Positions 21,885 to 56,407 of a stretch of DNA of 64,000 nt are shown piece after piece; within the stretch, counting starts at the first letter, position 1; each line of letters starts with the position of its first letter. The position numbers were made by a program, and so were the translations under genes. The DNA comes from Bacilli bacterium. Its GTDB lineage: Bacteria; Bacillota_I; Bacilli_A; RFN20; CAG-826. Location: positions 5,734 through 69,733 of the forward strand of contig JAXFZD010000021.1 of NCBI GenBank assembly GCA_034185265.1, read 5' to 3'. The notes under the pieces are model-generated. The model was not told where the DNA came from. It worked only from the letters and a program-made list of their open reading frames with translations, and made no database searches.

Positions 21885-21956
21885 ATCAAAACCCGGTTAA
21901 TTATTTCATAATTAATAAAGAATGTATTCTATTTCAATCTAACAAGATTAAAGAAA

Positions 21957-21981: not shown

Positions 21982-22017
21982 CTATTTTTAAAAAAGAGGC
22001 GACCCGTATATGCGTTT

Positions 22018-22650: not shown

Positions 22651-22685
22651 GGAGACATTTTAATACTATTGTTTTTCTTTAGAAA

Positions 22686-22718
22686 GAAAAAAGTTGGACC
22701 AACATAGTCAATCCAACT
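22686..22718 (-). terminator. putative terminator after the 1350-aa gene
   Basis: On the minus strand: AGTTGGA-(13 nt)-TCCAACT followed by TTTTTTCTTTC. Confidence 0.45.
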
Positions 22719-22738
22719 TAATTTATTTTGATTAAGAA

Positions 22739-25700: not shown

Positions 25701-26791
25701 TTGGAACTTGAGATGTTGCTAACATCAGCAGATAAAGCAATTTTAGCAACTGTTTTTGTATCAGCTCCTTCACCTTTTGTAATAACTAAAGGATCAACTT
25801 CAGCTGCACCAGTTGGATTTGCTGGAAGATCAATTTTAGTTAAGTTATAAGAAGTATCTGTTCCTAAACCAACGGATAAATCAAGGCTTCCTAATTCAAG
25901 ATTTAATGTGAAATAGTGGCCTGTGTCGGTGTTAGTTTCAACCATGTGATTAAGAGAATCTAACATTCCATCGAGATCTAATCCTGAAGATTCAGTATCA
26001 GATTCTTCTTCGGAAGATTCTTCGCTGCTTCCATTAATTAAATCAAATAAGGAAGGAATAGTAATATCCATACCATTTCCATCTTCATTAGAATTTAAAA
26101 TTGTAAGGATTGTATCGATAATTTCGTCAAGAGAACCAAATTCATAGATTTGTTTACCACCAGTGATTTCATCGTAAACACTAACGAATTCTTGAGCGGT
26201 TTCATCCCAAACAAGCATTTCCTTCTCTTTAATAGAAGTTTTGTATTTTAAATCCCAGACTTGTTCTGCTTCAGCAGTGTCTTTAATAGGATTAGTTAAG
26301 CCAATGTAAGCCTCATCATCAACTAATGTGACTTTAAGATTTCTTTCGTGTGCATAACCTGTTGTTGGGTTATATTTTAAGTTTGCATCTAAATCAAGAT
26401 TAATGGAGTGAATAATCTTCATATCGGTAGAGGATAAGTTTCCAATTTGTAACTTTAAGTCAATTCCCCCGTTAGTTCCGTTAGTAATTGTATTCATTCC
26501 TTCACCTTTACCTGGAATTTCAACTTTAAATGTGTGAACGTTAAGATTTAATCCGCCAACGATTCCTTCTTGTAAGTTATTTACTAATCTTGCAGAACCT
26601 GAAAGAGTTGGGGTAGAAGGAACATAATTTTCTTCTTCATCTTCTTCGTTAACTACAGCTGGAAGACTATCTTGAGGTAAACCAAAATAAACTCCTGCGG
26701 CAGTTACACCAAATAAAGCTACAAACAATCCAGTTTTAGCTAAGGTTTTCTTCAATTTATTGTGTTTTTTCTCGGTATTGCTATTTTTCAT
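22739..26791 (-). CDS. large (1350 aa) signal-anchored extracytoplasmic protein, paralog of the 18213..21884 product
   Basis: One N-terminal TM helix (GLFVALFGVTAAGVYFG). S/E-rich linkers (SSEESSEEESDTESSG, SSSEEESTTSEST) and a PAEP-type acidic stretch near the C-terminus. RBS GGAGG at 26800-26804, 2 nt after the upstream stop. Confidence 0.8.
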   Translation of the reverse strand: MKNSNTEKKHNKLKKTLAKTGLFVALFGVTAAGVYFGLPQDSLPAVVNEEDEEENYVPSTPTLSGSARLVNNLQEGIVGGLNLNVHTFKVEIPGKGEGMNTITNGTNGGIDLKLQIGNLSSTDMKIIHSINLDLDANLKYNPTTGYAHERNLKVTLVDDEAYIGLTNPIKDTAEAEQVWDLKYKTSIKEKEMLVWDETAQEFVSVYDEITGGKQIYEFGSLDEIIDTILTILNSNEDGNGMDITIPSLFDLINGSSEESSEEESDTESSGLDLDGMLDSLNHMVETNTDTGHYFTLNLELGSLDLSVGLGTDTSYNLTKIDLPANPTGAAEVDPLVITKGEGADTKTVAKIALSADVSNISSSNNNLIMAPADKDSYRALEDSMDLWERIAKLAKSPSFALKTLHTEGDEDKKGLLLTHYKRTSFHGDTVAYVPQETATLDLNVNAKFGKKYSLEGLGLGLEFESKYQDEDLNDLVSRAALGVNYDRRFQTVNESKEFAASTGAFININDVLKAKTNKLTIDELYARIKNLISSSSEEESTTSESTIDTDKLLDTAKKVIEIVAKNFILVSDIKDAVKNIIDSPFIQDVKQMTFGSALDLIKTIQNDDNYLHIVLDLNYLGLPGEIELAIDARSDSKGLVGLNFRGVRFDLVQLDGSILINELGQSDKVFLTEEEIASYDSMNHILGIYDQVKEIVDDEAVSIGIEGSIMNKDEYEQETTGVKIEGEAAFTWAKNEGKGRAALSIDHIAENYAQKHNVAFDVVNEKTVDEENEIVDRNQYVAFKYDTNNGELHENPTDLEDSKLYREDGKVATNPVNQNGIAAKLDYSSFSSVFTEVKDVLTQQEFKDRVSFFGKFTWAILEPSLGNLLGGLGESEVQDDPYLFRLFENQLLLEASIGDEESSFRLNKQVFGTSSDIIVSLGYQTDKPAKAIDEENTNTYLNDNSEVENTYNGNGLAYIGVNIANASKESAKPLEVDLKINLNELDPNETFVSLDTEGMKEIKGVDRLMSYAANGLMMGENNSATPTTFDFGLNASVTLFQHEIDLINASLKTNIGSSSTKLHASMLLPAIKGLNAPDSDIYFRALEEEGNHDVHAYYDAHSVVTTMNGQNEEEILVPSNTEEGGELFLTRESDYGKVRDVRDTLTLTGAEFGEHPLEYLLQYMVGVDTRYFATEEEAEPAEPVAEPVEEQAEEKSGWNPFAKEALHLEDCELSYTFVDGEENLQENEIGESKWDLSVNLGKLLHMEYLLDTVHIGLSGLKGDTFSTISKLDIGANVKLGNSDQGHGIKLAAVNISLGLKNVDKINGYTDSWTEEDEKAGCGFVGYKNYTANSILNNDYNLYVGFGAYAL

Positions 26792-26806
26792 AATTTAAAC
26801 CTCCAA

Positions 26807-27778
26807 TTATTTAAAATATTCTGAGTAAGCAATCGTTTCATTTAAGCTCGGAATTTTGTAAGCTTCCGAATCAGTAGAATATGTGTAATATTTTGTACTA
26901 AGTGATGCTGTCATCTTGGCTCCTATGCCAGCCGCTTGCTCAGCAAAATATGACTCATATACCACCGAATCTACGAAATTTAGATCAAAATCGAGATTAA
27001 ATGTAAGATGGCAATAGTAGAAACTTGGTAATGAGGCAAGTCCTGAAATAGATTTCATCTGTAATCTATAGGTAGAGACGCCTTTGTCATCACCGGGATT
27101 AAGCTCAATTTCAACTTGATAACCTTTTGAAGTTTTTGAAGCTGATGTAACTCCTCTTCCTGAAAGGTTGTTACTCTTCAAACAAGTTTTTTTAGAAATT
27201 ATGTAGGAAGATGGTGTAGAAACGTTTCTTCCCATAAGTTCTTTGTAACTTTTTGCATCATAGGTCTTAGGGGTGACTGCAGAATAATTTGCTGAACCTC
27301 CCCAGTAAGTTGTGGTGGTATCACCTTCTTGATACATACGATCATAGAGGTTGATTAAGCCAGTAGAGATTGATTCCTCAAAGTATTTGTCGTTATTCTT
27401 TGCAAATGATGCGTAGATTGCTTGGTTAGCAATAGATGCATTAGTGTAACCAACTCCTACTGAGAAATAATTTCTAGAGGAAGTGAACTTTTCCATGGCA
27501 ACATCAATCATTTCCCATGGTCTAAGTTGTTCGTGAAGATTGCTAGCGTTTTTGACACTGTTGTATTTAGCCATTACTTCATCAATGTCATCAACAAGTT
27601 CATTTCTATCAACAACGACATTTGAACCCTTAACAACTTTGAAGAAATTGGCTGCAACAATACCAACGCCAACGCCAAAACCAATAACGACAGCACCGAT
27701 AATGCAATCTTTTATGATTACACGCTTCTTGCTGCGTTTTGATTTGTCAACACTTCTTCTTCCAAAATTATCTGGCAT
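26807..27778 (-). CDS. signal-anchored extracytoplasmic protein (~323 aa), first gene of the island
   Basis: Basic N-terminus plus one TM helix (IIGAVVIGFGVGVGIVAANFF). Start chosen at ATG 27778 behind AAGGGAG; the track's 27805 is an alternative. No known domain recognised. Confidence 0.7.
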   Translation of the reverse strand: MPDNFGRRSVDKSKRSKKRVIIKDCIIGAVVIGFGVGVGIVAANFFKVVKGSNVVVDRNELVDDIDEVMAKYNSVKNASNLHEQLRPWEMIDVAMEKFTSSRNYFSVGVGYTNASIANQAIYASFAKNNDKYFEESISTGLINLYDRMYQEGDTTTTYWGGSANYSAVTPKTYDAKSYKELMGRNVSTPSSYIISKKTCLKSNNLSGRGVTSASKTSKGYQVEIELNPGDDKGVSTYRLQMKSISGLASLPSFYYCHLTFNLDFDLNFVDSVVYESYFAEQAAGIGAKMTASLSTKYYTYSTDSEAYKIPSLNETIAYSEYFK

Positions 27779-27863
27779 TTTTCCCGCTCCCTTGAGCGGT
27801 AACATTTTAAAAGAATCATTGTCAATGTCACTCTATTAGCGTGTATCCGCACGTTAGAAAGCC

Positions 27864-29242: not shown

Positions 29243-31099
29243 ATGAGAAAGAAGAATTTAATTTCATTATTATTCCTTACAGCGATGTTTTCCGCTACTT
29301 CTTGTACTCTTAAAACCCAAGGAGATGCAGAAGATTATTACGTTGTAAAGTTTTATACTGATTTCGAAGGAATTCAGTATGATAGCTCAACTTTAAATAA
29401 TCCTGAAAAATATAAAGCTGCTAAATTTTTAGGAACTGGATACTTCTACAAGAAGAATTCAAATCTTTCTTCAGAACAGCAAGAAGAGGTTGCTGATGTT
29501 AGAATAAGCGATTTTTCTAATATTGACCGAAATGCTGATGCTTATGTTTCTGAAAGGAAAGAAACTAAAGCTTATAGATATAAATTTGATAAATTTGTAG
29601 GATTCTATGGCGATGGAACTCCTGTAGTTATGAATAATATAACCGGGAATTGCAACGTTTTTTCTCATTTTGAAGAAGTTACAAAGAATTATTTACTTAG
29701 AGTTTTCACTTCAGGTCAGCGTTTAATATTCACAGGAAATGTTGAATATGGAACTAAAGTCGGAGATAACTTAAGTGAAGAAGAAAAAACCGATTTACCA
29801 GTAGAACCAGATCATGATCCAGAAAAGACAAATGATGCTTACTACATGGTTTACCCATTTAAAGGCTATCAAGGAACTATAGCTGATGATAATGAAGAAG
29901 AAGTAAAAACTCCTTTATTAAGTAAAGAACAACTTTTAAATTGGACAGTTGAAGATAAGATCTCTTTCTATCCAGTTTTTGGAGATGAAGAGGATTCTAA
30001 AACTGCTGTTCCTTCTTACCATCCTTACTATAAAGATTACACAATCAATTATTATAAAACTAATGTCTTTACTCCTGAAAATCTTATTAAGAGTGAAGAA
30101 TATGAATGGGGACAACCTTTATCTTCTAAGCCAGTTGATGCTCCAGCTTGCAGCGAACCAGTAGATGAATCATTTACTTGGGAATTTAAGAGTTGGGTAG
30201 GCGAATATAATGTTGAAGACGAAACTGATCCTAGAGTTGAAAAAGCTTTACGTACTGCTGGACTTGATGGTGAGCTAGTTCCTTTCTCTGAAGATTTTGT
30301 TAGATATCACTGCAACGTTTATCCTTTATATGAAAAGGTTAAGAAACAAGTTAAATTTACTTGCTACATTAACCCAGATTATACAGAAACTAAAGAAGTT
30401 AACTTAGATTATGGTCAAACTGACTATACTTTACCAAAAGTTTCTGATACTTCTTCAAAGTGTTTCACTGGAAGATGGAAATTATCTCCAACAGGCGAAG
30501 CAATGGAACAAAGCGAGCTTCCAGTTAATGAAGATTTAGCAATTTATGCTGAATTTGTCGATACAGATTTAGTCTTAGGAACAGGAGAAAAGCTAAGCTT
30601 TAGAAAAGAATGTTTCATTGATTATGATGCTAACTCTAATACAACATATGATAGAGGTTATGTTCTAGAAAGTGTTCCAGATACACTTCATTCATTAGAT
30701 ATTGCTTCTTTACAAGCTGGACTACCAGTTCCAATTAAAGCTATTAATTTAGAGGATGCAACTCATCTAACTTCTATTACTTTAGATGAAAATATTACCT
30801 GTATTTATGCTAATTCATTCCGCGGAATTAAAGCAACTTCATTAGATTTATCTAATGCAAGTCACTTAATTAAAATTGATGCTCTTGCGTTCTCTTATGC
30901 AGATGCTTTAACTTCTCTTACTCTTCCTGCTTCAATTAAAGGATTAGGAAAAGGCATAATTCAAGGATGCGAAGCTTTAACTACAATCAATTTGAAAATG
31001 TCAGAAGCCAACTATAATTCTTATAAGAGCAGTGGATTAATTTCCTCTAAGTGGAATTATGTTGATTCCGTACTTAAAGTTGATCCAGCATTTATTTAA
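29243..31099 (+). CDS. lipoprotein with C-terminal BspA-type leucine-rich repeats
   Basis: Lipobox MFSATSCTL. The C-terminus (..HLTSITLDENITCIYANSFRG..ATSLDLSNASHLIKIDALAFSYADALTSLTLPASIKGLGKGIIQGCEALTTINL) has LRR_5/BspA-like periodicity. Confidence 0.75.
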   Translation: MRKKNLISLLFLTAMFSATSCTLKTQGDAEDYYVVKFYTDFEGIQYDSSTLNNPEKYKAAKFLGTGYFYKKNSNLSSEQQEEVADVRISDFSNIDRNADAYVSERKETKAYRYKFDKFVGFYGDGTPVVMNNITGNCNVFSHFEEVTKNYLLRVFTSGQRLIFTGNVEYGTKVGDNLSEEEKTDLPVEPDHDPEKTNDAYYMVYPFKGYQGTIADDNEEEVKTPLLSKEQLLNWTVEDKISFYPVFGDEEDSKTAVPSYHPYYKDYTINYYKTNVFTPENLIKSEEYEWGQPLSSKPVDAPACSEPVDESFTWEFKSWVGEYNVEDETDPRVEKALRTAGLDGELVPFSEDFVRYHCNVYPLYEKVKKQVKFTCYINPDYTETKEVNLDYGQTDYTLPKVSDTSSKCFTGRWKLSPTGEAMEQSELPVNEDLAIYAEFVDTDLVLGTGEKLSFRKECFIDYDANSNTTYDRGYVLESVPDTLHSLDIASLQAGLPVPIKAINLEDATHLTSITLDENITCIYANSFRGIKATSLDLSNASHLIKIDALAFSYADALTSLTLPASIKGLGKGIIQGCEALTTINLKMSEANYNSYKSSGLISSKWNYVDSVLKVDPAFI

Positions 31100-31970: not shown

Positions 31971-32270
31971 TTATAAGCCTAAAAATTCGAGAACTTTAAC
32001 TTTTGGTTGATATCCAAGAGCTTGATTAACTTTCTCTCCATTCTCAAAATAAATAAGAGTAGGGATGGAATAAATTCCATATAAAGAAGCAAGCTCGCCG
32101 TTTTCATCAACATTAACTTTTAATACTTTAAGTTCTGGATGTTCTTCAGCAATTTGTTCGATGATTGGAGCAAGCATTTTGCATGGTCCACACCAATCAG
32201 CATAGAAATCTACTAAGACTTTTCCTGCAGCAACTTCTTTTTTAAATTGTTCTAAACTTGTAATTTCCAT
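31971..32270 (-). CDS. trxA: thioredoxin
   Basis: WCGPCK active site, 99 aa, RBS AGGAGG. Confidence 0.95.
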
Positions 32271-32281: not shown

Positions 32282-33205
32282 CTATAAAGCAAATTCAAAG
32301 ATCAGATATATTATAAATAAATGAAGTGGAAAATAAAGATAAGAGAATATTCTGAAGAACTTAGAATCATATCCTCTTTTTCCGTTATATAACATAATAG
32401 GTAATATTGCTAAAATCGCGTAAGATTGGAATCCACTTATATGTTTATAAGAATATGACATTCCGATTATATCTAATCTAGGACCGATCTCTGGATAATA
32501 TTTAATAACATAGAATATGACATTAATCGTAAAGAAAAGTACACAAGAAACTATATTTATTAATCTGCTATATAAGATAGAATTAACCAAAGTTTCATCT
32601 GACATTCCTAGATCTTCGCTTTGTTTAGTAAGAAGGAATTTAGCGATTGGTCTAGCATAGAAGAACCCTAAAGTAATTAATAATCCATATATTCCATAAG
32701 AAGATCTAAACATTAATGGCAGCCAATAAATAGTTTTCGAATATAAAGATTCATAAGTTGATAACGCTGTCATTCCAATAGTAATGGCGGCAGGGATAAG
32801 AGCGAGAATCTTTAATTTATTTTTCCTAGTTAAGAAATATAGGACTAAACCATTTAAAACTAAGTCAGTAAAAGGATTTTGGAAATTTACATCAACTTTA
32901 GCAACTCCTTTTAGTCCATAAGTAGTAATAACTTGGAAAAGAGTAATTCCTAAATAAACTAAGAATAATCTAGCTAAATATTTTTCTTTATGTTTAGAAT
33001 GGAACATTCCTTCTGCAAGCATTAAAGCAAATAGTGGAAAGGCAATTCTTCCAAATATACGGAAAATCTCTCCTGTAAAATATTGAGCTGAAGTAGTTGC
33101 GTAACGTTCAATTAGAAAAATACCAATATGATCTAAAGTCATCATTAAAATAGCGATGATTTTAAGTCCAAATGAAGATATGGAAAAACGTTGCTTTTCT
33201 ACCAT
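32282..33205 (-). CDS. TraX-family membrane protein
   Basis: [15 protein letters not shown] at the N-terminus and a polytopic 307-aa protein, typical of the TraX family. Confidence 0.7.
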
Positions 33206-34161
33206 ATTTGAATAGACGCCCTCGCTGTTTTAAAGAAATTAGCATTTATAAATAAAGGAATTCTTGTAACTTGAACTAGACCCGCTTGAGAACCAAGAAT
33301 TTGGAAATAAGAGATAGCATTAATGGTTACATGAGCTAAGAAAGCTGCTCCAAATCCTCCAAAATCATAAGCCAAAGTTAAGACTAATCCTCCAAGAAGA
33401 TATGAAGGCATTGAAATTATTTCGTTGAGAAGCTCTTCGCCTCTAATTCCAGAGAAAATTATGTCCCAATCGATGTGAATAGACATAAATACAAGCATTG
33501 AAGCAATATAGGCAATTGGCTTTCCAAATCTACTTGTGAAATTAAATAAGCCGACCCTGTATGTTAATTCTTCTACAAATGGAGCAAGTAAAACGACGAC
33601 AAAAAACATCAAAGCAGGGTTCATTCTTATCATTTTTATGACTTCAAGTTGATTTTTTGAATCTCCAGAAGGGGGAGTTTGACCAATCGCGTTGAAAATA
33701 CCTAAAACAATAGCATTATTTATTAAAGAACCAACAACATTAGCAACTAGAGCCCCAATTCCTACTAAAACAAAAATAGTTGCGAAGGATCTGCCAAATT
33801 GCTTTCTTTCCTTTAAAACTACAAGTGCCATAATGATTGCAGTGGCAAAGAAAGAGATAGAATTCGCTACAACCATATACTCAGTTGATTCAACATATAA
33901 CTGCAAAGTCTCTTTTCCATAGTTAGAGATGTAGATCATTTGCATTATAAAAGCAACGATAATCCCGATTATAGATTTCCCTAATAAGCCTATAAAAAAT
34001 AGAGCTAATTCTTTTGTATAAGAAATGTGAATTTGATGGTTAAATTGTGAATTTAAACGGGAATTTACGGAGATTTCACCACATTTTGGACATTTTGAAA
34101 CCTTAGCGTCATAACCGCATCCACAGTGCTTACATCTTTGCTTTCCAAAGTACAAATTCAT
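33199..34161 (-). CDS. CPBP-family intramembrane glutamic protease with N-terminal zinc ribbon
   Basis: N-terminal CKHC..(x11)..CPKC. CPBP motifs are present: FVEELTYRVGLF (EExxxR) and FLAHVTINAISY (HxxxN). Confidence 0.8.
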   Translation of the reverse strand: MNLYFGKQRCKHCGCGYDAKVSKCPKCGEISVNSRLNSQFNHQIHISYTKELALFFIGLLGKSIIGIIVAFIMQMIYISNYGKETLQLYVESTEYMVVANSISFFATAIIMALVVLKERKQFGRSFATIFVLVGIGALVANVVGSLINNAIVLGIFNAIGQTPPSGDSKNQLEVIKMIRMNPALMFFVVVLLAPFVEELTYRVGLFNFTSRFGKPIAYIASMLVFMSIHIDWDIIFSGIRGEELLNEIISMPSYLLGGLVLTLAYDFGGFGAAFLAHVTINAISYFQILGSQAGLVQVTRIPLFINANFFKTARASIQIW

Positions 34162-34246
34162 AGACCTGGCATAGTATAAACATTTTTTAAAATTAAAACT
34201 ACTAAGAAACTTTCTTTTAATTTATAATTAAAAAAAGGAGTCTGTT

Positions 34247-37200
34247 ATGGCGAAAATGAATTTGTTAGCTGATATGAGCGGTACTATTTCAATGGTTGAA
34301 ACAATTTTGTTATGCGTAGGTATCGGTCTTATCGTAGTTTTAGTACTTTGTTTTTTAAGAGGATTACTTAGAGGTTGGAAATATGGAACCTATCGTTTAG
34401 TTTTCATTGGAATCTTGATTGCAATTGCAGTTTGTATCCTAGGTTCTGTTTCTCAAGCAATAGGAGAATTTAATATTAGCAACTTTGTTGGGAAAATATC
34501 TTTCAATTTAAATAATAAAACGGTTGTTGTGACTCCTCAAACCGTTTTCCAAACATTAAAAGATTTAATTTACGGTATAGCTGATGCATATAACGTTAAA
34601 TCTAGTCCTGCAGAACTTCTAAATTATTCTTATGCTTTAGCATCCTCAACATTAAAGCTACTTACTTTAGCAGCAGAAATGTTAATTATTATCATTATTG
34701 GACAACTTCTTTGCCTTCTTTTCTGGCACGTTCTTTTCAAAAGAATCTTTATGCGTAAAGAAAGAGCTGCTAAGAAAGCTGCTAAATTGCAAAAGCAACA
34801 AATGGGAGTTGATGGTACAGTTCAAGGAACAGGGGAAGTTAAGAAATATAGAAAATTACGCTTAGTTTCTGCTTTTGAAGAATTTGTTTTAGCAACGGTT
34901 TGTGTATGCTTATTCTTAATGCCATTTACTGCAATCGCATCCGCAGTTAAAAATAATTTCAAAGTAAAAAATGAAGATCTTAATGGAAACGAGATCTTAA
35001 TTAATGTCAATAATATGCTCAACGCATATGATAATTCGATTATGTCTAAGATTTTCTTCGATTGGACTAAAGGCGATGGAACTAAATCATTAGATATGAG
35101 CTTAATGGATTTCCTAGGAACTGGGGAATATGGGACTGTAAAAACTTCCTTGATTAATGAAGTTTCCAATATTGCTTCTGTTGGAGGAAAAGTTGTTAAT
35201 TCTGGCCTTCTTAAATCCTTCAATCAATCTGGAGGAATTAAGTGGTACATGCTTTTAACTTGTTCAACCATTCCTGAAATTATTACTACAATCGCAAATG
35301 TTGATTTAGTTAAAATCGTTTTACCATTCGCGGTTAATATCGCAATGAATATGGAAGATGTTAAGAATGTTCTTGGCGAAGAAACAATTGCTTATTTAAC
35401 TGATGAAAAGAATCAAATTAACTGGACAAACGAACTTAAAAACCTTTCTACTGTCTATCAAAATCTCCTTGATTCAGGCTTATTTAACTGTATTGTTGAG
35501 GAAGATGAATATCTCAAGATTCCTCGTTTTAATCTAAAACAGGTTTATGAATTAATTAGCTCTGATTCAACTAAAACTCAAATTCATAATCTAACTAATA
35601 ATCTTAATGATTCAAAGGTTTTAAATAGAATCGTCACAGGTTTAACCTACACAATGTCTACCAAAGAAGAAGTAAACGACGATCCTGATGTAGTTACAGT
35701 TGGACTTTCTGATTTCTTACCTAAAGAAGGTGGAAATGTTTCTTATAACAAGATGACCAGCATGGATTGGTTTAGAGAATTAAGAATCGTTTATGATGGA
35801 TTCTATGATTTAAACAAAGTTAATCCAACTCAAGTTAAGAAACTTTTTGATGACGTTCCTTCTTATTATGATCCTGAACAACCAGTTGATAGTAGTGAAG
35901 AAGAAGGCTACATCAAATTTGGACCAGTTAAAATTAAAACAAATTCATTAACTGATGTAGTTATCGATAACGTTTCCGGAATAACTGACATTCTTGTTGG
36001 TAAATTTAATAATACTGAACCTATTGTAGATGCTAAAGGTAATTCTACCCAAGGAAACTGTATGTTAGACTCTGACTTATTAGCTAACGGTATGCCTAAA
36101 ATACTTGATGTTATCGAGAAAACCGTCAATGATTCTAGCGAAACAAAGATTAATTTAGATGACGCTAGAGCTGCATTAAATAGTGAAGATACCCCAACAT
36201 TAAAGAAGAATTTCAAGAAAGAATATAAGCATGTTCTTGAAGTTTTAGGTGACTTTGCCGCAACTGATGATGGAAAAGCTTTCTTAAAAGATTTAGAAAA
36301 TCATCCAGGATTATATTTTGATCCAACTGGAGCTCTTTATGATGTTAAAGAATCTTTAGTTGACTCCTTAATGGAAGGTATTCAAAATGTAGATAATTCT
36401 CTTATTTTAACCGGAATTATCCCAGCATTTGCTGATAATTTACTTACTTCTTTCAAAGAAAGTTTAACTGACCTTGGAATGAGTGAATTTAAATTCCCAA
36501 AACAAAATTTAGGAACCGAACTTTCTAAATTATTCTCAATTCTTAAATATTCTAAGAACGTAGTTTTAAATAGCTCTCAAATTAATTCTCTAGCTTCCGC
36601 AGGACATTTATTAACAAACTACTCAGATGAACTAATTCATTTAATCGACACAGTCGCTCAATCTAAGATTTTAAATCCAGAAAATGTTGAAGTTGGGGGA
36701 GTAACTTATGCTAAAAACTACAATTTAACGCAATTACTTAACAATATCTTCTCTAAACTTGGTGATGAAGAAGCAAAATTAACCGTTGATGAAGTTAACT
36801 CAGTTTCTAATTTATATAATCCAATTAACTATCGCGGAGAATATTTGCAACCTGTAAGTGAAACTAGTGCAGAATCTTCTCTTTTAGTCAACTTTATGAA
36901 GAGATTAGCGGATTCTCCATCATTCGATAGATTAGATAAGCTTTCCTTAGATACAACATCTTTAGGAACAAAAATTGAAATAATTTCTACCTTAAACTTA
37001 GAAGATATCTTTACTCCTGTAGATGATTCTTATTTCTTACCTAAGATTATGTCTTCAGTCTTAGATAAAGCTTTTGAAGAAGTTTTAGATCTAAAAAATT
37101 TAGGAATGACTGGACAAGTTTCATTTAAGAATATTGCTAAAGGTCATTGGCAAGCTGAAGGAAGATATTTCAATTCAATTATTTATGCCGCAAGTAACGG

Positions 37201-40200
37201 ATTAGATTTAGCAAATCTTAACTTCCTAACTGTAGATTCTAATTTACTTAGTGAAGTTTTAGTTAACTTAGCAAGTAGCAATATATTCGTTCAAAATGGA
37301 GAATATGTCTTCCCTAAATTCCTCTATAACAAGTTAATTATGTCTATGGATAAAGATTATTTAGGTTATGTTTGCGATCCTTATGTAACTCAAGCTCAAA
37401 TCGATCAAGCCTGTGCATCTTCTGCCACTATCGTAGATAAACAAGAACTTACTACAGGGCTTCAAGGAGATATTTTATCTTTATCTTCAAAATCTGATTG
37501 GCTAGGTGAAGGAAAAGAAATTGAAAGACTTACTCGCACATTAAATGGACTTAATGCTATTGGCGGTCCAGAAAAAATCGAGAAATTTAACTACGAATCT
37601 CTTCCTTTATTCTCTCAAGTCTTAAAAGATATCAACGAATGTAGATCTTTCGGCAGAGTCGTTTTATATAACGCATGTAAAACTGCTATTTCCGATGTTG
37701 ATTTAAAACAAACAGTTGGTGATGAATCAATTATCGTCATGAGCGATGCTAATACAATTTATCTCTGGGAAGCGAGTAGAGAAGCAAGAACTCAAGAAAT
37801 TAACGATATGGTCGATATTTTCTATAGACTATATGATCCTCATTACGGATTAATTCAATCTGAAAAAGGTTCTTCAACATTCTCTTTAGGTAATATTGAT
37901 CCTGACTATTTACTAGAACCTCTTCTAAAAGGAATGAAAGCTTCTACTATCTTTGGAGTTAGAGGTCATGATGAACACGGAAAACAAAACGCCTATTCTA
38001 TCTTTGAAGAGCTCATGATTGAATTCGTCGCTAGAGCTGGAGTTTATGCTGATGCAGGAAAAACTGCTCCATATTATGCTCCAATAAATCTTCAAACAAA
38101 TAAGAGCATTTCTGAAATGGTTTTAGATGTTAGTGAAGCTAATGGATGGGAAGCAGAAATTGATTCAATTGTTAAATTAGTTAAAGATTTAAAGAGTTCC
38201 CCATTCTTAAATTCTAGCGGTGGAATTGACTTCTCCATGTTCTCTAAAAAAGATTTCTTCCAAGGAAATCCAGCTTATTTAGAAAGTGTTTCCACTTCCT
38301 TAAATTTAATCATGAACGATATTAATTCTTCTGAAGTTCTTTATAGATGCTTACCTTCTAAATTAGAAACTCCTATGAAACAAGTTGGCGATCCAGGAAG
38401 TGATTTACGTAATATCTTAGGTAAAGCTGACTTCTATTACACAACTAATGGAGAAAGTGATCCAGAAAAGATTGACTACGGCAAATTTTCAACTGAAGAA
38501 ATCGATAATTTCATCAATTCTATATTTACTTTAGGTAAATTATCTAATGCTAACTTCACTAATCTTTCTACAATTGATTTTGAAACATTAACCGATGGCA
38601 TTGCTTTAATGGGGCCAAGTGGAATCTTCAATAGTAAGAAAGATGGCGAAGGACTTACTTCATTTACAGCTATTATTAAAAGAGTCCTTAATATTGAAAA
38701 ATTAGGTCAATATTTATACATGGAATCTTCACCTAAAGATGCATATCACATTTCTCAAGGTCACTATAATTCTTATGAAGGAAAAGTCCTTTACACAATT
38801 AATAACGTCTTTGGACAATATAAATATGATTCTGCAAAGTTAAAAACTCAAATTTATAAATATATTAACGGAAGAAATGATACAAGCTTATATTCTCTAC
38901 TAAATAAGATCACTAATCCTAGAATTTCTTCAATTCTTGATAGTTCAACAACCGACTTACAAAATCTTTCCTACGAAGATTCTTATTACTTACTTAGCGC
39001 GTTAAATAACAACGAATTCTTCTACGATGCTGTTCCTAATTTACTCGCTAAACTTACAACTAATACAAGTTATAAAGTTGAGAACATCTTCTTAGATTCA
39101 GCGAACATTTTCTATCATTACGATCAAGCTAACAACAAATATGATGCTAAATTCGATGACAGTGAATTATCAATTGTTTTGATTATCTTTAATGAATTAA
39201 AGAGTGCACAAAGCGTTCTTAATACAATGGATTTAAATTCTATCGACTTAGATTTAATTCATAACTTACTCGTAGATATGTCTAACTCTGAAATCTTCCA
39301 TGAAGCCGGAGCTTATAAAAATGGATCTGGCTATGGAGACTTTGTCTATAACGCTGTAACAGATAAAGTTGAAAAGACCAAGATGTCTATTTATGAACAA
39401 TTCATGTTCAATTTATACAAGAAGAGTTCCTTAGGAAAACAAGATTATCAAGAAGGAATTGATTACGAATATTATTCAAAATACGGGGCTTCTGCGCAGT
39501 ATTACAAATTATATGACTCAATTTCTAACTTTAACGGATCTTGGCTAAAAGAAGTTGATACTCTTATTGGTAAAGATTCTGAACCTACTTTAGGCTTCCT
39601 TTCTTACGCTAAATCTTTAGGCTTTGCTACAACCGGAAGTGTTAACTATAGCAACGAAACCTTATCTAAATTAAATCCAGATAACTTAATGATTTTATTT
39701 GGAAAATTAAATGATTTATCTATCACTTCTGACGCTGCAAGAAATACAATGGCTTCGCTTCTTACTAGTGATGGCGGATCTAATGGTATCGGTTTAAATA
39801 AATATTCTGCTTACGTTGACACAGCTGCTGGAAATATTACCAATTTTACTAATGTAACTAAAGACGATGTTCCAGTAAAAGTTAATTATATTTCTTCAAT
39901 AACTGAATCTACTTATCAAATTAGATCTGTAGTTGGAAATTATGATTTAAGTGGACTTGTTAGTGTAAGTGAAAATGCTGGAGTTTATACATACGATTTA
40001 CATAAATTAACCGATAAGTATGTAATAACTTTCGCAACTCAGTTAGATAGTGCTACAGTTTCTTACGATTCTTTATATTACTTACAAACTAAAGATGAAA
40101 TGACAAATAAAGACATGATCGGACTACATGCCTTCTTACAATCTGCATGGCATGATAATGGTGATGGAACTGGTTCTTACTTCGAATTTAAGACCAATGC

Positions 40201-41293
40201 TGGTGGGCAATTTAACGATTATTTAAAAGATCATTCTGTCTCAGGAATCATTGAAATGCTTAGAATTTCTTCAATGTTTAGTAAGATTGAAGTTGAAGAT
40301 GCTAGTGGAATCGTTAGAGGAAGATCAGTTACTTTAGGTTCATTAATGTCTTACGAATCTTCATTTAGTGGATCTAACAAAATTAAGATTAACATGACTG
40401 ATTATTTCTCTATTTCTGTTGGAGATACTCATACTTCATTAGTTGAATTAGAACGTTCTCTTTCTGAAGTTAGCTCTCCTGCTCAATCAGAAGAACTTGG
40501 ACATTGGATCGATAACCATATTCTTGATGCTGGTTTAATGAGAACATATATCGACTTAATTGGTGATGAAGTCTTTGAATCAGCAATTTCCGATGCTCAA
40601 AAAGCTGTCATTTTCTACACAATGTCTACTCAATATTTATATGGAAATCTTGCAATAGATGCTAGTGCAAGAACAATGAGAGACGTAATTGCAGATCTTG
40701 TATATTCTGTTTCTATTGAAAATGAAAATAGATCGACATATAGATTTGCTAGAAATATTGTTGCTGGTGTTTATAAAGGATTATCTTCTGCCGCATTAAA
40801 TTACATTAATTTACCAAATCAGGTTAGATCGTCCTTTGCTTATCCAACAACTTTAAGAATTAATGTTTTACCTGCTTCAGAAAGAACTATCTTTGTTGAT
40901 GCTTATGGAACTATTAATGATGGTGTTTGTAATTACGATTTCGCAATGTTTGACAATGCTAATATGTGCAAATCCTTATCATATATAGTTAATTTCACTC
41001 ATGAAGTATATGTTGGAGTTACTTCTGAAACTAAAGATACAATAACAAATATTTATGCTCCAGTTTTAGATGCTGTTGGACAAAATGCTTTCTTAGATCA
41101 ATTCTATTTAGGCTACATGTACGATGCTCTTGTTAATAGGGGCAAGTATAAACTCGATCCAGGAACAATGAAATATACTGATCTTTACGATGTTGATAGA
41201 AGCAAAAACACTACTGAAACATTTGTAAACTACATCGATAGTTTGGTCCCGAATGTTTCATTTAGCTACGCATTAGTTGCTTCAGTTTTATAA
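34247..41293 (+). CDS. giant (2348 aa) polytopic membrane protein, unknown function
   Basis: An uninterrupted ORF behind AAGGAG. It has at least four N-terminal TM helices within the first ~240 aa, then ~1950 aa of largely helical sequence with recurring motifs. No known domain recognised. Confidence 0.85.
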   Translation: MAKMNLLADMSGTISMVETILLCVGIGLIVVLVLCFLRGLLRGWKYGTYRLVFIGILIAIAVCILGSVSQAIGEFNISNFVGKISFNLNNKTVVVTPQTVFQTLKDLIYGIADAYNVKSSPAELLNYSYALASSTLKLLTLAAEMLIIIIIGQLLCLLFWHVLFKRIFMRKERAAKKAAKLQKQQMGVDGTVQGTGEVKKYRKLRLVSAFEEFVLATVCVCLFLMPFTAIASAVKNNFKVKNEDLNGNEILINVNNMLNAYDNSIMSKIFFDWTKGDGTKSLDMSLMDFLGTGEYGTVKTSLINEVSNIASVGGKVVNSGLLKSFNQSGGIKWYMLLTCSTIPEIITTIANVDLVKIVLPFAVNIAMNMEDVKNVLGEETIAYLTDEKNQINWTNELKNLSTVYQNLLDSGLFNCIVEEDEYLKIPRFNLKQVYELISSDSTKTQIHNLTNNLNDSKVLNRIVTGLTYTMSTKEEVNDDPDVVTVGLSDFLPKEGGNVSYNKMTSMDWFRELRIVYDGFYDLNKVNPTQVKKLFDDVPSYYDPEQPVDSSEEEGYIKFGPVKIKTNSLTDVVIDNVSGITDILVGKFNNTEPIVDAKGNSTQGNCMLDSDLLANGMPKILDVIEKTVNDSSETKINLDDARAALNSEDTPTLKKNFKKEYKHVLEVLGDFAATDDGKAFLKDLENHPGLYFDPTGALYDVKESLVDSLMEGIQNVDNSLILTGIIPAFADNLLTSFKESLTDLGMSEFKFPKQNLGTELSKLFSILKYSKNVVLNSSQINSLASAGHLLTNYSDELIHLIDTVAQSKILNPENVEVGGVTYAKNYNLTQLLNNIFSKLGDEEAKLTVDEVNSVSNLYNPINYRGEYLQPVSETSAESSLLVNFMKRLADSPSFDRLDKLSLDTTSLGTKIEIISTLNLEDIFTPVDDSYFLPKIMSSVLDKAFEEVLDLKNLGMTGQVSFKNIAKGHWQAEGRYFNSIIYAASNGLDLANLNFLTVDSNLLSEVLVNLASSNIFVQNGEYVFPKFLYNKLIMSMDKDYLGYVCDPYVTQAQIDQACASSATIVDKQELTTGLQGDILSLSSKSDWLGEGKEIERLTRTLNGLNAIGGPEKIEKFNYESLPLFSQVLKDINECRSFGRVVLYNACKTAISDVDLKQTVGDESIIVMSDANTIYLWEASREARTQEINDMVDIFYRLYDPHYGLIQSEKGSSTFSLGNIDPDYLLEPLLKGMKASTIFGVRGHDEHGKQNAYSIFEELMIEFVARAGVYADAGKTAPYYAPINLQTNKSISEMVLDVSEANGWEAEIDSIVKLVKDLKSSPFLNSSGGIDFSMFSKKDFFQGNPAYLESVSTSLNLIMNDINSSEVLYRCLPSKLETPMKQVGDPGSDLRNILGKADFYYTTNGESDPEKIDYGKFSTEEIDNFINSIFTLGKLSNANFTNLSTIDFETLTDGIALMGPSGIFNSKKDGEGLTSFTAIIKRVLNIEKLGQYLYMESSPKDAYHISQGHYNSYEGKVLYTINNVFGQYKYDSAKLKTQIYKYINGRNDTSLYSLLNKITNPRISSILDSSTTDLQNLSYEDSYYLLSALNNNEFFYDAVPNLLAKLTTNTSYKVENIFLDSANIFYHYDQANNKYDAKFDDSELSIVLIIFNELKSAQSVLNTMDLNSIDLDLIHNLLVDMSNSEIFHEAGAYKNGSGYGDFVYNAVTDKVEKTKMSIYEQFMFNLYKKSSLGKQDYQEGIDYEYYSKYGASAQYYKLYDSISNFNGSWLKEVDTLIGKDSEPTLGFLSYAKSLGFATTGSVNYSNETLSKLNPDNLMILFGKLNDLSITSDAARNTMASLLTSDGGSNGIGLNKYSAYVDTAAGNITNFTNVTKDDVPVKVNYISSITESTYQIRSVVGNYDLSGLVSVSENAGVYTYDLHKLTDKYVITFATQLDSATVSYDSLYYLQTKDEMTNKDMIGLHAFLQSAWHDNGDGTGSYFEFKTNAGGQFNDYLKDHSVSGIIEMLRISSMFSKIEVEDASGIVRGRSVTLGSLMSYESSFSGSNKIKINMTDYFSISVGDTHTSLVELERSLSEVSSPAQSEELGHWIDNHILDAGLMRTYIDLIGDEVFESAISDAQKAVIFYTMSTQYLYGNLAIDASARTMRDVIADLVYSVSIENENRSTYRFARNIVAGVYKGLSSAALNYINLPNQVRSSFAYPTTLRINVLPASERTIFVDAYGTINDGVCNYDFAMFDNANMCKSLSYIVNFTHEVYVGVTSETKDTITNIYAPVLDAVGQNAFLDQFYLGYMYDALVNRGKYKLDPGTMKYTDLYDVDRSKNTTETFVNYIDSLVPNVSFSYALVASVL

Positions 41294-41302: not shown

Positions 41303-41899
41303 ATGGTTATTTATGCTTATCATAAAGAAAAAATAGAAGTGCTGTCTTCAATCTTTATTTGCGTAGGATTTCCTCTACTTAAGGAAGAAGACTTCGCTTC
41401 TATTTATAAGCAAATCAAGGAAGAATATCCTAAAGCTGCCCATTATCCATACGCTTTTATTGTAAATAATTACATTAAATCAAGTGATGATGGAGAACCT
41501 TCTAACGCAGCGAGTAAGAACCTAGTTCTTCTACTTAAAGAAAAAGGGTTCAACTATTCCGGATTAATTATTATTCGTTACTTTGGAGGAACTAAGCTTG
41601 GTCTTCCTAGACTTAGAAGAACATTCCTAGATGTAGCTAAACTTACTCTAGATAACGCTCCTAAAGGAGAAATAAAGAAGCTAAATTATTATTCCTTAAG
41701 TTTATCTTATTCGGAATTTGATTACCTTAAACGCATCGCGAATAAATATGAAGTTGAGATCTTAAATAGCTTATTTGAAGTTGACGTTAAAGTAGAAATT
41801 AAAACTGTTTTAGATAAACAAAAGATTATCGATATATTTAAACTTAGTGAACAGAATATCTTAAAAAGTGAAGAAAAAGAGGAGGTTGTTAAGTTATGA
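41303..41899 (+). CDS. yigZ: YigZ/IMPACT-family (UPF0029) protein
   Basis: The IIIRYFGGTKLG motif and preceding ..SDDGEPS..A.. are typical of the IMPACT N-terminal domain. Confidence 0.7.
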   Translation: MVIYAYHKEKIEVLSSIFICVGFPLLKEEDFASIYKQIKEEYPKAAHYPYAFIVNNYIKSSDDGEPSNAASKNLVLLLKEKGFNYSGLIIIRYFGGTKLGLPRLRRTFLDVAKLTLDNAPKGEIKKLNYYSLSLSYSEFDYLKRIANKYEVEILNSLFEVDVKVEIKTVLDKQKIIDIFKLSEQNILKSEEKEEVVKL

Positions 41900-43164
41900 T
41901 TCCTAGTGATGAATACGCTTCTAGACGTAAATTACTTTTTTCTAAAATGAAGGATAATTCAGCCTGTATTCTTTTTTCTGGCCAAGAAATAACTAAATCT
42001 GCTTCAAGCAAATATCCATTCTTTGTAAATCGAAATTTCTATTATTTAACGGGGATTTGCCGGGATAATTGCATTTTATTGCTTATTAAAAGTGCTTCAG
42101 AATTAAAAGAATTTCTCTTTATAGAAGAGGATAACGAAGCTAAAGAAAAGTTTACTGGAAAAAGATTATCTTTTGAAAAAGCCGAGATTCTTAGTGGGAT
42201 TCAAAACTGTTTATTGATCTCTTCTTTCAACTCTAGAATTAACTTTTATCTTTCTCCAACTAACTTAGTTGATGCTCTAGATACTTTATATTTAGATGAC
42301 TATGAAAATGTAGATTTAAAGATATTTGATAATATGTATCTTAAAGATTATTCAGCGACCATCTTTAACGAATATCCTAACGTAGAAATAGTTGACATCC
42401 ACGATACTTTAGCTGCTTTAAGAAATATTAAATCTAACTTAGAAGTCAATGAAATCAAAGAAGCTGTAAGAAGAAATATTATTTCTATGCAAGCTACAAT
42501 GAAAGAAATTAGACCTAATCAGAAACTTTATGAATTAGGTATTAAATACATAAATTCTTCTCTAGAAAACAATGAATATGAGGATTTTCCAGTTGATCCT
42601 GTTTTAGCTATAAATAAAGATGCGTGTATTTTAAAAAATAGAAATTATGCAGAAAGATTAGGAAATGGAGATCTAGTTTTACTTGAAGGATGCGCTACTT
42701 CTAATTTATATAATTCACGTTTATGTAGGGTTTATCCTAGCGGAGGAACTTTCGATAACGTGCAAAAGAAGATCTATAGAATCGTTTTAATGTGTGAGAA
42801 CGTCTTGATTAATAGCTTGAATTTAGGGGTACCGTTAAGTGAAATTCAAGCAATTGGTTATCAATTTTTAGCTAGAGAATGTCAAAAAGAAGGCTTAATT
42901 AATAAACCAGAAGACATAAAAAAGCATATTTATCATAACTTGATTCAAAATGTTGGTTTAGATATTCCTGATTTAGGTAATAAAAACCAAGTTATTGAAA
43001 AAGGAAATATTCTTTCTATTTCTCCAGGTCTATATTTCCCATCATTAAATATAGGAATTAGGTTATCTGATATGGTTTATGTTAATGGGAAGGGAAATGA
43101 GATTTTATCTAATTCTTTAATAAAAGAAATCGATGAAATAGAGCAATTCTATAGAGGAAACTAG
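41896..43164 (+). CDS. M24 (Xaa-Pro peptidase) homolog with all metal ligands substituted (predicted pseudo-peptidase)
   Basis: The pita-bread fold pattern is retained, but the metal-binding positions read LLEGCA (D to E), YNSRLCRVY (D to R), YHNLIQNVGLDIPD (GH..HE lost), SISPGLY (E to S) and IRLSDMV (E to S). ATGA overlap with yigZ. Confidence 0.75.
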   Translation: MIPSDEYASRRKLLFSKMKDNSACILFSGQEITKSASSKYPFFVNRNFYYLTGICRDNCILLLIKSASELKEFLFIEEDNEAKEKFTGKRLSFEKAEILSGIQNCLLISSFNSRINFYLSPTNLVDALDTLYLDDYENVDLKIFDNMYLKDYSATIFNEYPNVEIVDIHDTLAALRNIKSNLEVNEIKEAVRRNIISMQATMKEIRPNQKLYELGIKYINSSLENNEYEDFPVDPVLAINKDACILKNRNYAERLGNGDLVLLEGCATSNLYNSRLCRVYPSGGTFDNVQKKIYRIVLMCENVLINSLNLGVPLSEIQAIGYQFLARECQKEGLINKPEDIKKHIYHNLIQNVGLDIPDLGNKNQVIEKGNILSISPGLYFPSLNIGIRLSDMVYVNGKGNEILSNSLIKEIDEIEQFYRGN

Positions 43165-49928: not shown

Positions 49929-50351
49929 ATGGGGAAAAGTAAAATTAAAAAATTTAGTCTAAAGTTGAACGTCATTGTTTTACTTTGTATAGATTTTTTA
50001 GTACTTCTCGCTCTAATTCCTTATGCAGTTAATGGCTATATCGGGTTTATGTATGGCTGGATACTTGGCTGTGGAGTAGAGATGATTTGCTTACTTACTA
50101 TTTATTATTCAACTTTTTCTGTTCTTATTGACCCTGATAAGACTAAAGGAGTTGCGTTAACTATCCTTTTCTCTGTTGTTAGATTAGGTTTAATTGTTGG
50201 AATGCTTATTGTTTCCGCTATGTATACATTTTTATTTGGCTGGCCAAATTTATTATATTTTTGGACAACAGTAGGAGGAATTTTACCTCTTCCTGTCGTG
50301 CTTGGAATTACAACATTAATCATAAATAGAGAAAAAGGAGCCGAGAAATGA
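49929..50351 (+). CDS. atpI: ATP synthase protein I-like small membrane protein
   Basis: A hydrophobic protein of about 140 aa immediately upstream of, and overlapping, atpB. ATG 49929 is preferred over the track's TTG 49920. Confidence 0.55.
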   Translation: MGKSKIKKFSLKLNVIVLLCIDFLVLLALIPYAVNGYIGFMYGWILGCGVEMICLLTIYYSTFSVLIDPDKTKGVALTILFSVVRLGLIVGMLIVSAMYTFLFGWPNLLYFWTTVGGILPLPVVLGITTLIINREKGAEK

Positions 50352-51151: not shown

Positions 51152-51163
51152 GGAGGAAAAACT

Positions 51164-51454
51164 ATGTCTTTATTTAATTCATTATTAGCTTTACCAATGC
51201 TAGACAATGCCATGGGTATTGGATTAATCGCTATTGGTGCAGCTCTTTGCGTTTGCGTCGGAACATTCTCTTCTTTAGGAGAATCCAAGATCTGCTGTCA
51301 CGCAATTGATGCTATGGCAAGAAACCCAGAAGAGAGAGGACATCTTCAATCAACAATGATTTTAGCGGTCGCTCTTGACGAATCTTGTGCTATTTACGCA
51401 TTAATTATCGCTATCTTAATTATCTTCATTCTTCCAGGAAACTTAGCAGCCTAA
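51164..51454 (+). CDS. atpE: F0 ATP synthase subunit c
   Basis: Helical hairpin with an ARNPE loop and the carboxylate motif ALDESCAIYAL. RBS AAGGAGG. Confidence 0.9.
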   Translation: MSLFNSLLALPMLDNAMGIGLIAIGAALCVCVGTFSSLGESKICCHAIDAMARNPEERGHLQSTMILAVALDESCAIYALIIAILIIFILPGNLAA

Positions 51455-51468
51455 TTTAGGAAGATAAA

Positions 51469-54114: not shown

Positions 54115-54117
54115 TTA

Positions 54118-56406
<2,289 letters not shown>

Positions 56407-56407
<1 letters not shown>

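Follow-up and report, generated by a model that had tools for sequence, protein, structure and literature searches.

Staphylococcal Ebh and Embp have a YSIRK signal peptide, a C-terminal transmembrane (TM) anchor and bundle repeats of the FIVAR/GA type, each about 125 amino acids (aa) long. Archaeal S-layer stalks such as tetrabrachion are made of coiled coils or Ig-like domains, are held by a single C-terminal TM anchor and form lattices, and in proteins of the MarP/CvpA type four N-terminal TM helices precede an extracytoplasmic domain. Giant1-3 of Apilactobacillus kunkeei combine a rod of helical repeats with a binding head in Bacilli of small genome size (PMC12863079). The subject of this analysis is a 2348-aa protein (the giant protein) encoded in a stretch of 64,000 nucleotides (nt) from an uncultured member of the Bacilli (contig JAXFZD010000021.1 of assembly GCA_034185265.1, positions 5,734 to 69,733 of the forward strand); this whole stretch is called the window, and its own numbering is used below. 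As modelled, the protein shows a four-TM anchor, a conserved base, an alpha-solenoid of tandem units and a head made of a beta-sheet and an alpha/beta part. There is about an even chance, in our judgment, that it is a TM-anchored extracellular stalk with a fast-evolving distal head, serving as a surface spacer or adhesin.

The gene and its start signal lie as follows.
34235..34240, plus strand: Shine-Dalgarno sequence AAGGAG, 6 nt upstream of the ATG of the giant gene (read from the sequence)
34247..41293, plus strand: the giant gene, a complete open reading frame (ORF) with ATG start and TAA stop, 2348 aa (translated; full-length homologs at 99% to 24% identity)

A single 7-kb ORF behind a strong ribosome-binding site (AAGGAG) is what the first-pass annotation of this DNA had described, and both are confirmed, with the AAGGAG 6 nt before the ATG. 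Translation of the ORF gives no internal stops; since its frame holds no TGA and 13 TGG codons, table 11 (the standard bacterial code) fits. The ORF fills 11% of the window; genomes of this lineage measure ~1.2 Mb. A promoter scan of the gene gives one promoter-like site (34166-34193) that does not exceed chance expectation, and a terminator scan around it finds none.

The repeat array and the region that precedes it divide as follows, with unit boundaries taken from a hidden Markov model (HMM) of the unit and from hhalign.
34943..36361, plus strand: membrane-proximal ectodomain (as predicted), aa 233-705; conserved, helical with small beta-hairpins
36362..36991, plus strand: repeat unit 1, aa 706-915 (unit HMM 706-906, E-value 4e-20; hhalign)
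36992..37603, plus strand: repeat unit 2, aa 916-1119 (unit HMM 916-1119, E 4e-29; hhalign)
37604..38293, plus strand: repeat unit 3, aa 1120-1349 (unit HMM 1120-1343, E 2e-41; hhalign)
38294..38989, plus strand: repeat unit 4, aa 1350-1581 (unit HMM 1350-1581, E 1e-32; 98% probability against unit 5)
38990..39676, plus strand: repeat unit 5, aa 1582-1810 (unit HMM 1582-1810, E 8e-34; hhalign)
39677..39802, plus strand: partial sixth unit capping the array, aa 1811-1852 (hhalign of 1575-1618 against 1810-1852, 61% probability)

The array emerges when an alignment of 47 full-length homologs (A1) is cut into 140-aa slices that are compared all against all with hhalign. Many non-overlapping pairs of slices match at 95-98.8% probability (best E 6.5e-17; the median pair stands at 1.4%), and the offsets of matching slices concentrate around 215-230 aa and its multiples. 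Comparing a single unit with the whole profile places unit starts at ~706, 918, 1118, 1348 and 1575 and a partial copy at 1810-1852. This amounts to five tandem, all-helical units of ~225 aa at aa 706-1810, with profile-profile probabilities of 88-98%. A short terminal match to part of a unit recurs in homologs, and the unit HMM also recognizes a degenerate half-unit at aa 341-463, inside the membrane-proximal ectodomain. The consensus of the unit contains two copies of LxxLLxxLxxSxI(L/F) and two of (D/W)xxEIxxLxxxL. Because its first half matches its second half (~53% probability, E 1.3e-4), each ~225-aa unit is probably an old duplication of a ~105-aa half.

The C-terminal part that follows the array consists of two further regions.
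39809..40069, plus strand: beta-sheet domain of long strands, aa ~1855-1941 (DSSP strands E707-793 of model 2, offset +1148)
40070..41290, plus strand: C-terminal alpha/beta and helical "head", aa 1942-2348, the least conserved part of the protein (model 2)

These regions were delimited in AlphaFold2 (AF2) models of two overlapping segments, built on an alignment of the window fragment and 57 homologs. Model 1 (aa 1-1200) has a mean predicted local distance difference test score (pLDDT) of 81.4 and a predicted template-modelling score (pTM) of 0.56; for model 2 (aa 1149-2348) these values are 85.2 and 0.72. From aa 233 to about 1850 the modelled chain is nearly all helical, with occasional small hairpins, and the repeat units form a continuous alpha-solenoid; after ~1850 come a sheet of long strands, then mixed alpha/beta structure, then a helical C-terminal part. 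Foldseek comparison of both models with the PDB gives no match at E<=1e-3. The weak top matches (E 3e-3 to 1, template-modelling score about 0.1) are all alpha-solenoids, namely karyopherins, Nup192/188, UBR4, ATM and CAND1, and the best of them reach a probability of 0.35 or lower at E 3e-3 to 3e-2. The model of the C-terminal half (aa 1149-2348) finds nothing in BFVD, and a profile of the C-terminal 500 aa matches nothing among PDB sequences and in Pfam. Conservation follows a gradient, being highest in the TM and juxtamembrane regions and lowest in the head and the last ~250 aa.

These results bear on what had first been said of the repeat. The first-pass annotation envisaged ten or more diverged helical modules held to the membrane, and five ~225-aa units, equivalent to ten ~105-aa halves, together with degenerate pieces, agree well with that estimate; the internal periodicity is significant by profile-profile comparison. 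"Cryptic", as the repeat had been called, is a fair description, because units of the window protein are only 12-22% identical to each other. The array occupies aa 706-1852, and the last ~500 aa, which form the separate beta-sheet and alpha/beta head, are not repetitive and had been overlooked. Modelling by segments followed by Foldseek, which had been proposed as a check, yields largely helical models with no significant structural neighbour. The short motif from which the repeat had been surmised is real: S-x-[IVLF]-[LF] occurs 23 times in the ectodomain, versus 8.7 +/- 2.9 in 2000 shuffles, and the strict form of the pattern 3 times, versus 0.27 expected (P=0.0025). Its period, given as 100-180 aa, has to be revised to about 225 aa with two motif-bearing halves. 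The 11 motifs originally listed map to two positions of the unit and to the degenerate half-unit. Position A (about +8) accounts for aa 714, 1128, 1358 and 1585, plus aa 1821 in the partial unit, and position B (about +100) for aa 803, 1007, 1229, 1454 and 1677; the eleventh (aa 452) belongs to the degenerate half-unit, which precedes the array. In the AF2 models the conserved Ser sits in a helix break of 1 or 2 residues (residue 718 between H702-717 and H719-742; residue 1233 between helices 71-84 and 86-89 of model 2), and it looks like a helix-capping or junction position and not like a ligand-binding motif.

The N-terminal domain consists of the following elements.
34247..34942, plus strand: four-TM anchor domain, aa 1-232, the most conserved part of the protein (hydropathy)
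34301-34357, plus strand: TM1, aa 19-37 (hydropathy)
34358..34396, plus strand: loop 1, aa 38-50, RGLLRGWKYGTYR, nearly invariant, with a charge of +4; predicted cytoplasmic by the positive-inside rule
34397-34453, plus strand: TM2, aa 51-69 (hydropathy)
34682-34738, plus strand: TM3, aa 146-164 (hydropathy)
34739..34882, plus strand: loop 3, aa 165-212, family consensus FKRFxPKxxRKxKKLRLVSAFEE; predicted cytoplasmic (alignment A5)
34883-34939, plus strand: TM4, aa 213-231 (hydropathy)

A 19-residue hydropathy scan calls exactly four TM segments, all N-terminal, and none at the C-terminus; "at least four" within the first ~240 aa had been the original count, and all four strings quoted for it are present. 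The single later peak (aa 345-367) is weak and corresponds to ordinary buried helices in the AF2 model. The modelled anchor helices are long (H10-42, H44-73, H122-185 and H198-237), with a beta-hairpin and a helix in loop 2. Residues G39, G43, T48, W160, H161, F164, K165 and P226 of the four-TM module are invariant, as are Y261, S264, D283, E305, P360, G585, D608, K657 and E659 of the membrane-proximal ectodomain. The loop 3 consensus has ~9 K/R within ~23 aa and, like loop 1, is nearly invariant across the 34 members aligned. Few K/R occur in the N-terminal tail, beside loop 2 or in the stretch following TM4. The basic loop noted at the outset between helices 3 and 4 (RKERAAKKAAKLQKQQ..., aa 170) is indeed there, and proves to be a lineage-specific, Lys/Gln-rich insertion of ~30 aa in loop 3 (aa ~168-200, window 34748-34846) that is missing in most homologs (alignment A5). 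A few other lineages (L003/L060, L028, L065) carry unrelated insertions at the same spot, so loop 3 tolerates changes of length. If loops 1 and 3 are cytoplasmic, as the positive-inside rule predicts, then the N-terminus and the ~2100-aa part after TM4 should lie outside the cell. Like many exported proteins, that part is acidic (D+E 12-14%, K+R about 8%) and has abundant N, S and T.

A CvpA/MarP-like anchor was considered and rejected: compared by hhalign with E. coli CvpA, alignment A5 reaches a probability of 0.5% (E 0.11; a weak test, its template being a single sequence), and Pfam Colicin_V is matched by 5/34 members, at best with E 0.0055, always below threshold. VTT_dom (VTT/DedA) is matched by 6/34 members (best 22.4 bits against a cut-off of 33.9) and EI24 (CysZ) by 2/34 (25.6 against 32). 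These sub-threshold, inconsistent matches to VTT/DedA and EI24/CysZ, like those to DUF4131 and Wzy_C, are taken as the generic noise of polytopic helices.

Searches for known domains give a uniform picture. The giant protein matches no family in Pfam and none in NCBIfam. The single protein has no match among PDB sequences, where the whole-family profile gives only chance matches (E 0.022 and 0.45); the first-pass annotation had likewise recognized no domain. HEAT/ARM repeat profiles have no Pfam match in the window protein or its homologs, alignment-wide scans included, and the longest homologs show no added Pfam domain. The C-terminus (...FSYALVASVL*) lacks LPXTG, so the protein is not of the sortase-anchored type, and its N-terminus lacks a lipobox, which neighbouring orphan proteins do carry. 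Membrane proteins of the EsaA (type VII secretion system), YueB and Pip phage-receptor type have YhgE/Pip domains, with one TM helix before a helical ectodomain and a multi-TM block after it; the giant protein has no such Pfam match, its TM helices being all N-terminal, and Pfam finds neither SLH nor other known S-layer anchoring modules. What does define the protein, from its sequence, is a new family marked by the loop motifs FLRGLxRGWxYGTYR and WHxxFKR...SAFEE, by at least two ~225-aa units (family consensus LxxLLxxIxxSxLLxxxLP ... LAxSxIFN ... WxxEIxxL) and by synteny with CPBP/TraX and YigZ genes; the window protein has all of these.

A first homolog search yielded 56 full-length proteins of 2090-2790 aa at 99% to 24% identity, none of them named and none with a Pfam match. 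The closest relatives of the window protein are a 99%-identical copy and then proteins of only 44-46% identity; the window (31% GC) comes from a poorly sampled genus. A contig scan with the single protein matched nothing related, and an alignment-based scan, with one genome per GTDB species, succeeded in finding 59 loci. All of these are in metagenome-assembled genomes (MAGs) from guts, rumens or digesters, under the labels Candidatus (Ca.) Enteromonas, Ca. Alloenteromonas, "Bacilli bacterium", "uncultured Mollicutes" and "Erysipelotrichaceae" (a few bins are clearly mislabelled). An exhaustive HMMER search with an N-terminal profile of 1095 positions against 1.84 billion cluster representatives (50% identity clusters) gives 702 clusters at E<=1e-3, of which 245 reach E<=1e-30, details of the matches being those of the best 150 of the 702. 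The sole source name recovered is "hypothetical protein [Bacilli bacterium]", and the named carriers are all RFN20-type Bacilli MAGs (Ca. Enteromonas and relatives). A profile search of a word-indexed collection of 5.8 billion proteins (best 8000 candidates) adds two further proteins, and a search of that collection with the TM domain only, which was swamped by hydrophobic words, one split ortholog. Phage and plasmid collections hold no matches to the family, the window contains no giant paralog, and a literature search found no description of the family. "Orphan", the original designation, therefore gives way to a large unannotated family of 702 50%-identity clusters, present in 59 or more species-level genomes. 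The further proposal that its role in the envelope is important and undescribed fits an intact, syntenic, unannotated gene with this distribution; the function itself is a matter of the interpretation given below. Ca. Enteromonas has been assigned to order RFN20, family CAG-826 (PMC8035907), and RFN20 is published as mostly peptidoglycan-deficient, with sortases reported absent and with peptidoglycan and teichoic acids predicted to be lacking. The giant family is conserved across this uncultured and probably wall-less group of gut bacteria.

The number of repeat units varies, the more extreme cases being these.
L015, 7881-19643: expanded ortholog, 3921 aa, 11 units
L012, 2195-11368: expanded ortholog, 3058 aa, 7-8 units
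L046, 7887-16355: expanded ortholog, 2823 aa, 7 units

Counted by the unit HMM in proteins that were not used for its training, units number about 2.5 in 1628-aa homologs, 5 in most and 7 in homologs of 2.8 kaa; 62 of the 80 anchor-bearing homologs have 5. Protein length correlates with unit count (r=0.94, about 252 aa per unit, intercept about 1100 aa). The extra units of the expanded proteins are 41-56% identical to one another, versus 12-22% among the ancient units, so the expansions are lineage-specific tandem duplications. By similarity, the extra units of L015 form two alternating sets (U6/U8/U10 at 42-54%, U5/U7/U9/U11 at 35-45%), which implies repeated duplication of a two-unit block. 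Judged from the sequences, the unit counts and the high identity of the extra units thus indicate several independent changes of array length, during which anchor, membrane-proximal domain and head have all been retained.

The genes that flank the giant gene are conserved with it.
31971..32270, minus strand: thioredoxin (Trx) gene, third member of the conserved upstream block
32282..33205, minus strand: TraX-family membrane protein gene (Pfam), overlapping the CPBP gene by 7 nt; upstream in 43/43 loci
33199..34161, minus strand: Rce1-like/CPBP intramembrane protease gene (Pfam), divergent, 85 nt from the giant start; adjacent in 43/46 loci
41303..41899, plus strand: YigZ/IMPACT (UPF0029) gene, starting 10 nt past the giant stop; directly downstream in 49/52 loci

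The order of the block is almost invariant: Trx, TraX and CPBP lie on the minus strand, followed on the plus strand by the giant gene, YigZ/IMPACT, Xaa-Pro aminopeptidase and glycerol kinase. How far away Ham1 and GlpK lie differs by kilobases from locus to locus. The YigZ gene is probably co-transcribed with the giant gene. The upstream trio is kept beside a subfamily of ~1600-aa proteins at 21% identity, where the downstream genes differ. In one locus of this subfamily (L070:10001-15057) the gene is split into a 314-aa and a 1371-aa ORF with a 4-nt overlap, probably through a frameshift (pseudogene) or an assembly error. A functional link of CPBP/TraX to the giant protein, for example in processing or N-terminal modification, is possible from the gene order.

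Topology rules and amino-acid composition, together with the varying number of units, the gradient of conservation and the reported biology of a wall-less, sortase-less lineage, suggest that the large domain lies outside the cell and serves as a stalk or adhesin. In such a scheme the two basic loops would face the cytoplasm, with the N-terminus and the ~2100-aa C-terminal part outside, and the four-TM bundle would substitute for wall anchoring in a lineage predicted to have neither peptidoglycan nor sortases. The solenoid may be a fairly rigid stalk that, by typical solenoid geometry, would hold the head some tens of nanometres off the membrane. The giant protein can thus be imagined as a "pillar" mediating contact with particles, host surfaces or other cells, the stalk of which would be lengthened or shortened in evolution as repeat units are added or lost.

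Several considerations weigh against an extracellular stalk and adhesin. Typical adhesins tend to be variable, multi-copy and mobile; this gene is single-copy and strictly syntenic, mostly has five units, and has a conserved TM domain and conserved loops, and so looks more like a core component of the envelope or a membrane machine. The head has no binding fold that Foldseek, PDB-sequence and Pfam searches recognize. The topology is read from the positive-inside rule only, and the wall-less state of the window's organism from that of its relatives; a literature search found no cultured RFN20 relative or isolate. The strict synteny, single copy and conserved TM module are the reason for keeping two other explanations in serious consideration.

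The first of these, which we consider unlikely, is that the protein is a core envelope scaffold or coat rather than mainly an adhesin: a housekeeping TM-anchored pillar or lattice, comparable to archaeal stalked S-layer proteins, that would organize the surface of a wall-less cell or support it mechanically. Order-wide conservation, single copy, fixed synteny and the prevalence of 5 units (62/80 homologs) are what such a role would lead one to expect, as is the superior conservation of the TM and membrane-proximal regions; the predicted lack of peptidoglycan, teichoic acids and sortases, and the 11% of the window given to one gene in a lineage of ~1.2-Mb genomes, point the same way. On the other hand, a unit number varying from about 2.5 to 11 would be odd for a lattice of fixed geometry.

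The second, rather doubtful, explanation centres on the membrane domain: the four-TM module would be a transducer, transporter or processing partner working with CPBP and TraX, and the solenoid an extracellular sensor or substrate-capturing antenna. The TM domain and its cytoplasmic loops are indeed the best conserved part of the protein, CPBP is adjacent (43/46) and TraX upstream (43/43) where more distant flanks shift by kilobases, and the block persists beside the 21%-identity subfamily of ~1600 aa. Gene order is, however, generally conserved in these reduced genomes, so that linkage alone is weak evidence. There is a precedent for CPBP-family proteins in the maturation of staphylococcal surface proteins and lipoproteins in LnsB (PMC7387801) and SpdC (PMC5854430). 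The weak resemblance of a minority of members to VTT/DedA, EI24/CysZ and CvpA might also be cited in favour of a membrane function, but these Pfam matches are below gathering thresholds and inconsistent (6, 2 and 5 of 34), and hhalign did not bear out the CvpA lead (0.5% probability); moreover, four helices without conserved intramembrane charge would make a poor transporter.

Reversal of the topology, which would place the alpha-solenoid in the cytoplasm as a scaffold attached to the membrane, resembling the cytoskeleton of other wall-less bacteria, is improbable. Large HEAT/ARM-like solenoids are usually cytoplasmic, and the sole structural neighbours, weak ones, are solenoids of the eukaryotic cytoplasm or nucleus. 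Nonetheless, the invariant basic loops (+4 in 13 aa and about +9 in 23 aa) would then be outside, which would strongly contradict the positive-inside rule in every one of the 34 aligned members, and the large domain, acidic and N/S/T-rich with a fast-evolving distal end, resembles exposed proteins. That the ORF is a decaying pseudogene, a fusion or an artefact of annotation or assembly, for which the split gene of L070 (frameshifts in relatives having been named in advance as grounds for doubt) might speak, has next to no probability and is effectively refuted in favour of a genuine single gene, given dozens of intact, full-length orthologs from independent assemblies at 24-99% identity with conserved ends, high-confidence AF2 models of both protein halves and the lack of internal stops; it is not the case that frameshifts affect most orthologs.

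Returning to the extracellular stalk, a broader version of it may be entertained, with considerable doubt: the family might be the principal architectural element of an unseen type of bacterial surface, a solenoid-pillar spacer or coat that replaces wall-anchored display and is matured by, or coupled to, CPBP/TraX. In that event CPBP/TraX would be in a position to modify the predicted extracellular N-terminus.

The rest of the window contains other envelope-type genes. A minus-strand cluster of large orphan genes without Pfam or NCBIfam match occupies 18213-27805, interrupted by an HTH_3 regulator gene at 22018-22650; it encodes a 1223-aa protein with a lipoprotein-like N-terminus (LLALISAMLFSC) and proteins of 1350 aa and 332 aa with one N-terminal TM helix each. 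Two predicted lipoproteins are encoded on the plus strand, one of 618 aa with BspA-type leucine-rich repeats (29243-31099, lipobox ...MFSATSC) and one Ser/Glu-rich, of 296 aa (16973-17863, LLLASC). These large surface-type proteins, whether lipoproteins or TM-anchored, fit a Mollicutes-like surface held by the membrane, and a cell living without a wall would need its surface proteins tethered in this way. Genes for two M24-family Xaa-Pro peptidases (2251-4053 and 41896-43164, both plus strand) and for M3 oligopeptidase F (15149-16912) would suit a peptide-scavenging lifestyle. The complete F1Fo ATP synthase operon at 50348-56820 (plus strand; subunits a, b, delta, alpha, gamma, beta and epsilon identified) is ordinary housekeeping.

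RFN20 bacteria are frequent inhabitants of the gut of humans, poultry and ruminants, and their predicted loss of the wall is independent of that of mycoplasmas. Because the giant gene is large (among the largest in these ~1.2-Mb genomes), conserved across the order and unannotated, with no annotated relative, its product is a leading candidate for the principal structure that RFN20 cells expose. It provides a defined target for antibodies, metaproteomics, cryo-electron tomography and handles for cultivation or enrichment. It also brings a new ~225-aa helical repeat module with confident models and no structural neighbour, and a clean natural case of stalk-length change by unit duplication.

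Comparison with described systems starts from the fold. The giant protein shares with the HEAT/ARM solenoids (karyopherins, Nup192, CAND1) a fold class, a long superhelix of stacked helices; however, the matches are not significant (E 3e-3 or weaker, template-modelling score about 0.1) and there is no HEAT/ARM Pfam match. The HEAT/ARM unit is a helical hairpin of ~40 aa, whereas the giant unit has about 225 aa in 105-aa halves with beta-hairpins and is bacterial and predicted extracellular. Like MarP/CvpA-type proteins, the giant protein has four N-terminal TM helices followed by a predicted extracytoplasmic C-terminal domain, and its loop-1 motif "LRGxxRG" superficially resembles "LIRGFVRE" of CvpA, in spite of a profile comparison at 0.5% probability. 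Tetrabrachion is likewise a membrane-anchored, elongated stalk displaying a distal domain on a cell without peptidoglycan (a prediction for the giant protein), with no relationship in sequence or fold.

The nearest functional analogues, by analogy of design, are staphylococcal Ebh/Embp and Apilactobacillus Giant1-3, every testable defining feature of which is absent here. Ebh and Embp (PMC7587433, PMC9302970) are giant, membrane-anchored proteins of tandem alpha-helical modules that form an elongated fibre, with adhesion and envelope roles. The window protein has no FIVAR/GA or other Pfam module, no YSIRK or other signal peptide and no C-terminal TM helix, and instead has an N-terminal anchor of four helices. 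Giant1-3 resemble it as very large surface proteins of small-genome Bacilli with a long, imperfect rod of alpha-helical repeats, non-repeat beta-rich end domains and evolving repeats. They differ in having a cleavable Sec signal, an N-terminal beta-solenoid tip and C-terminal DUF5776 domains, where the window protein has a four-TM anchor at its N-terminus, a head with the beta-rich part at its C-terminus, ~225-aa units and neither DUF5776 nor any other Pfam domain. Giant repeat-bearing surface proteins of reduced-genome bacteria are thus already known, and this family newly adds to them; what is new is the anchor, a conserved N-terminal four-TM bundle, the ~225-aa module without relative in Pfam, NCBIfam or the PDB, a confidently modelled fold without structural neighbour, and single-copy conservation across an entire order.

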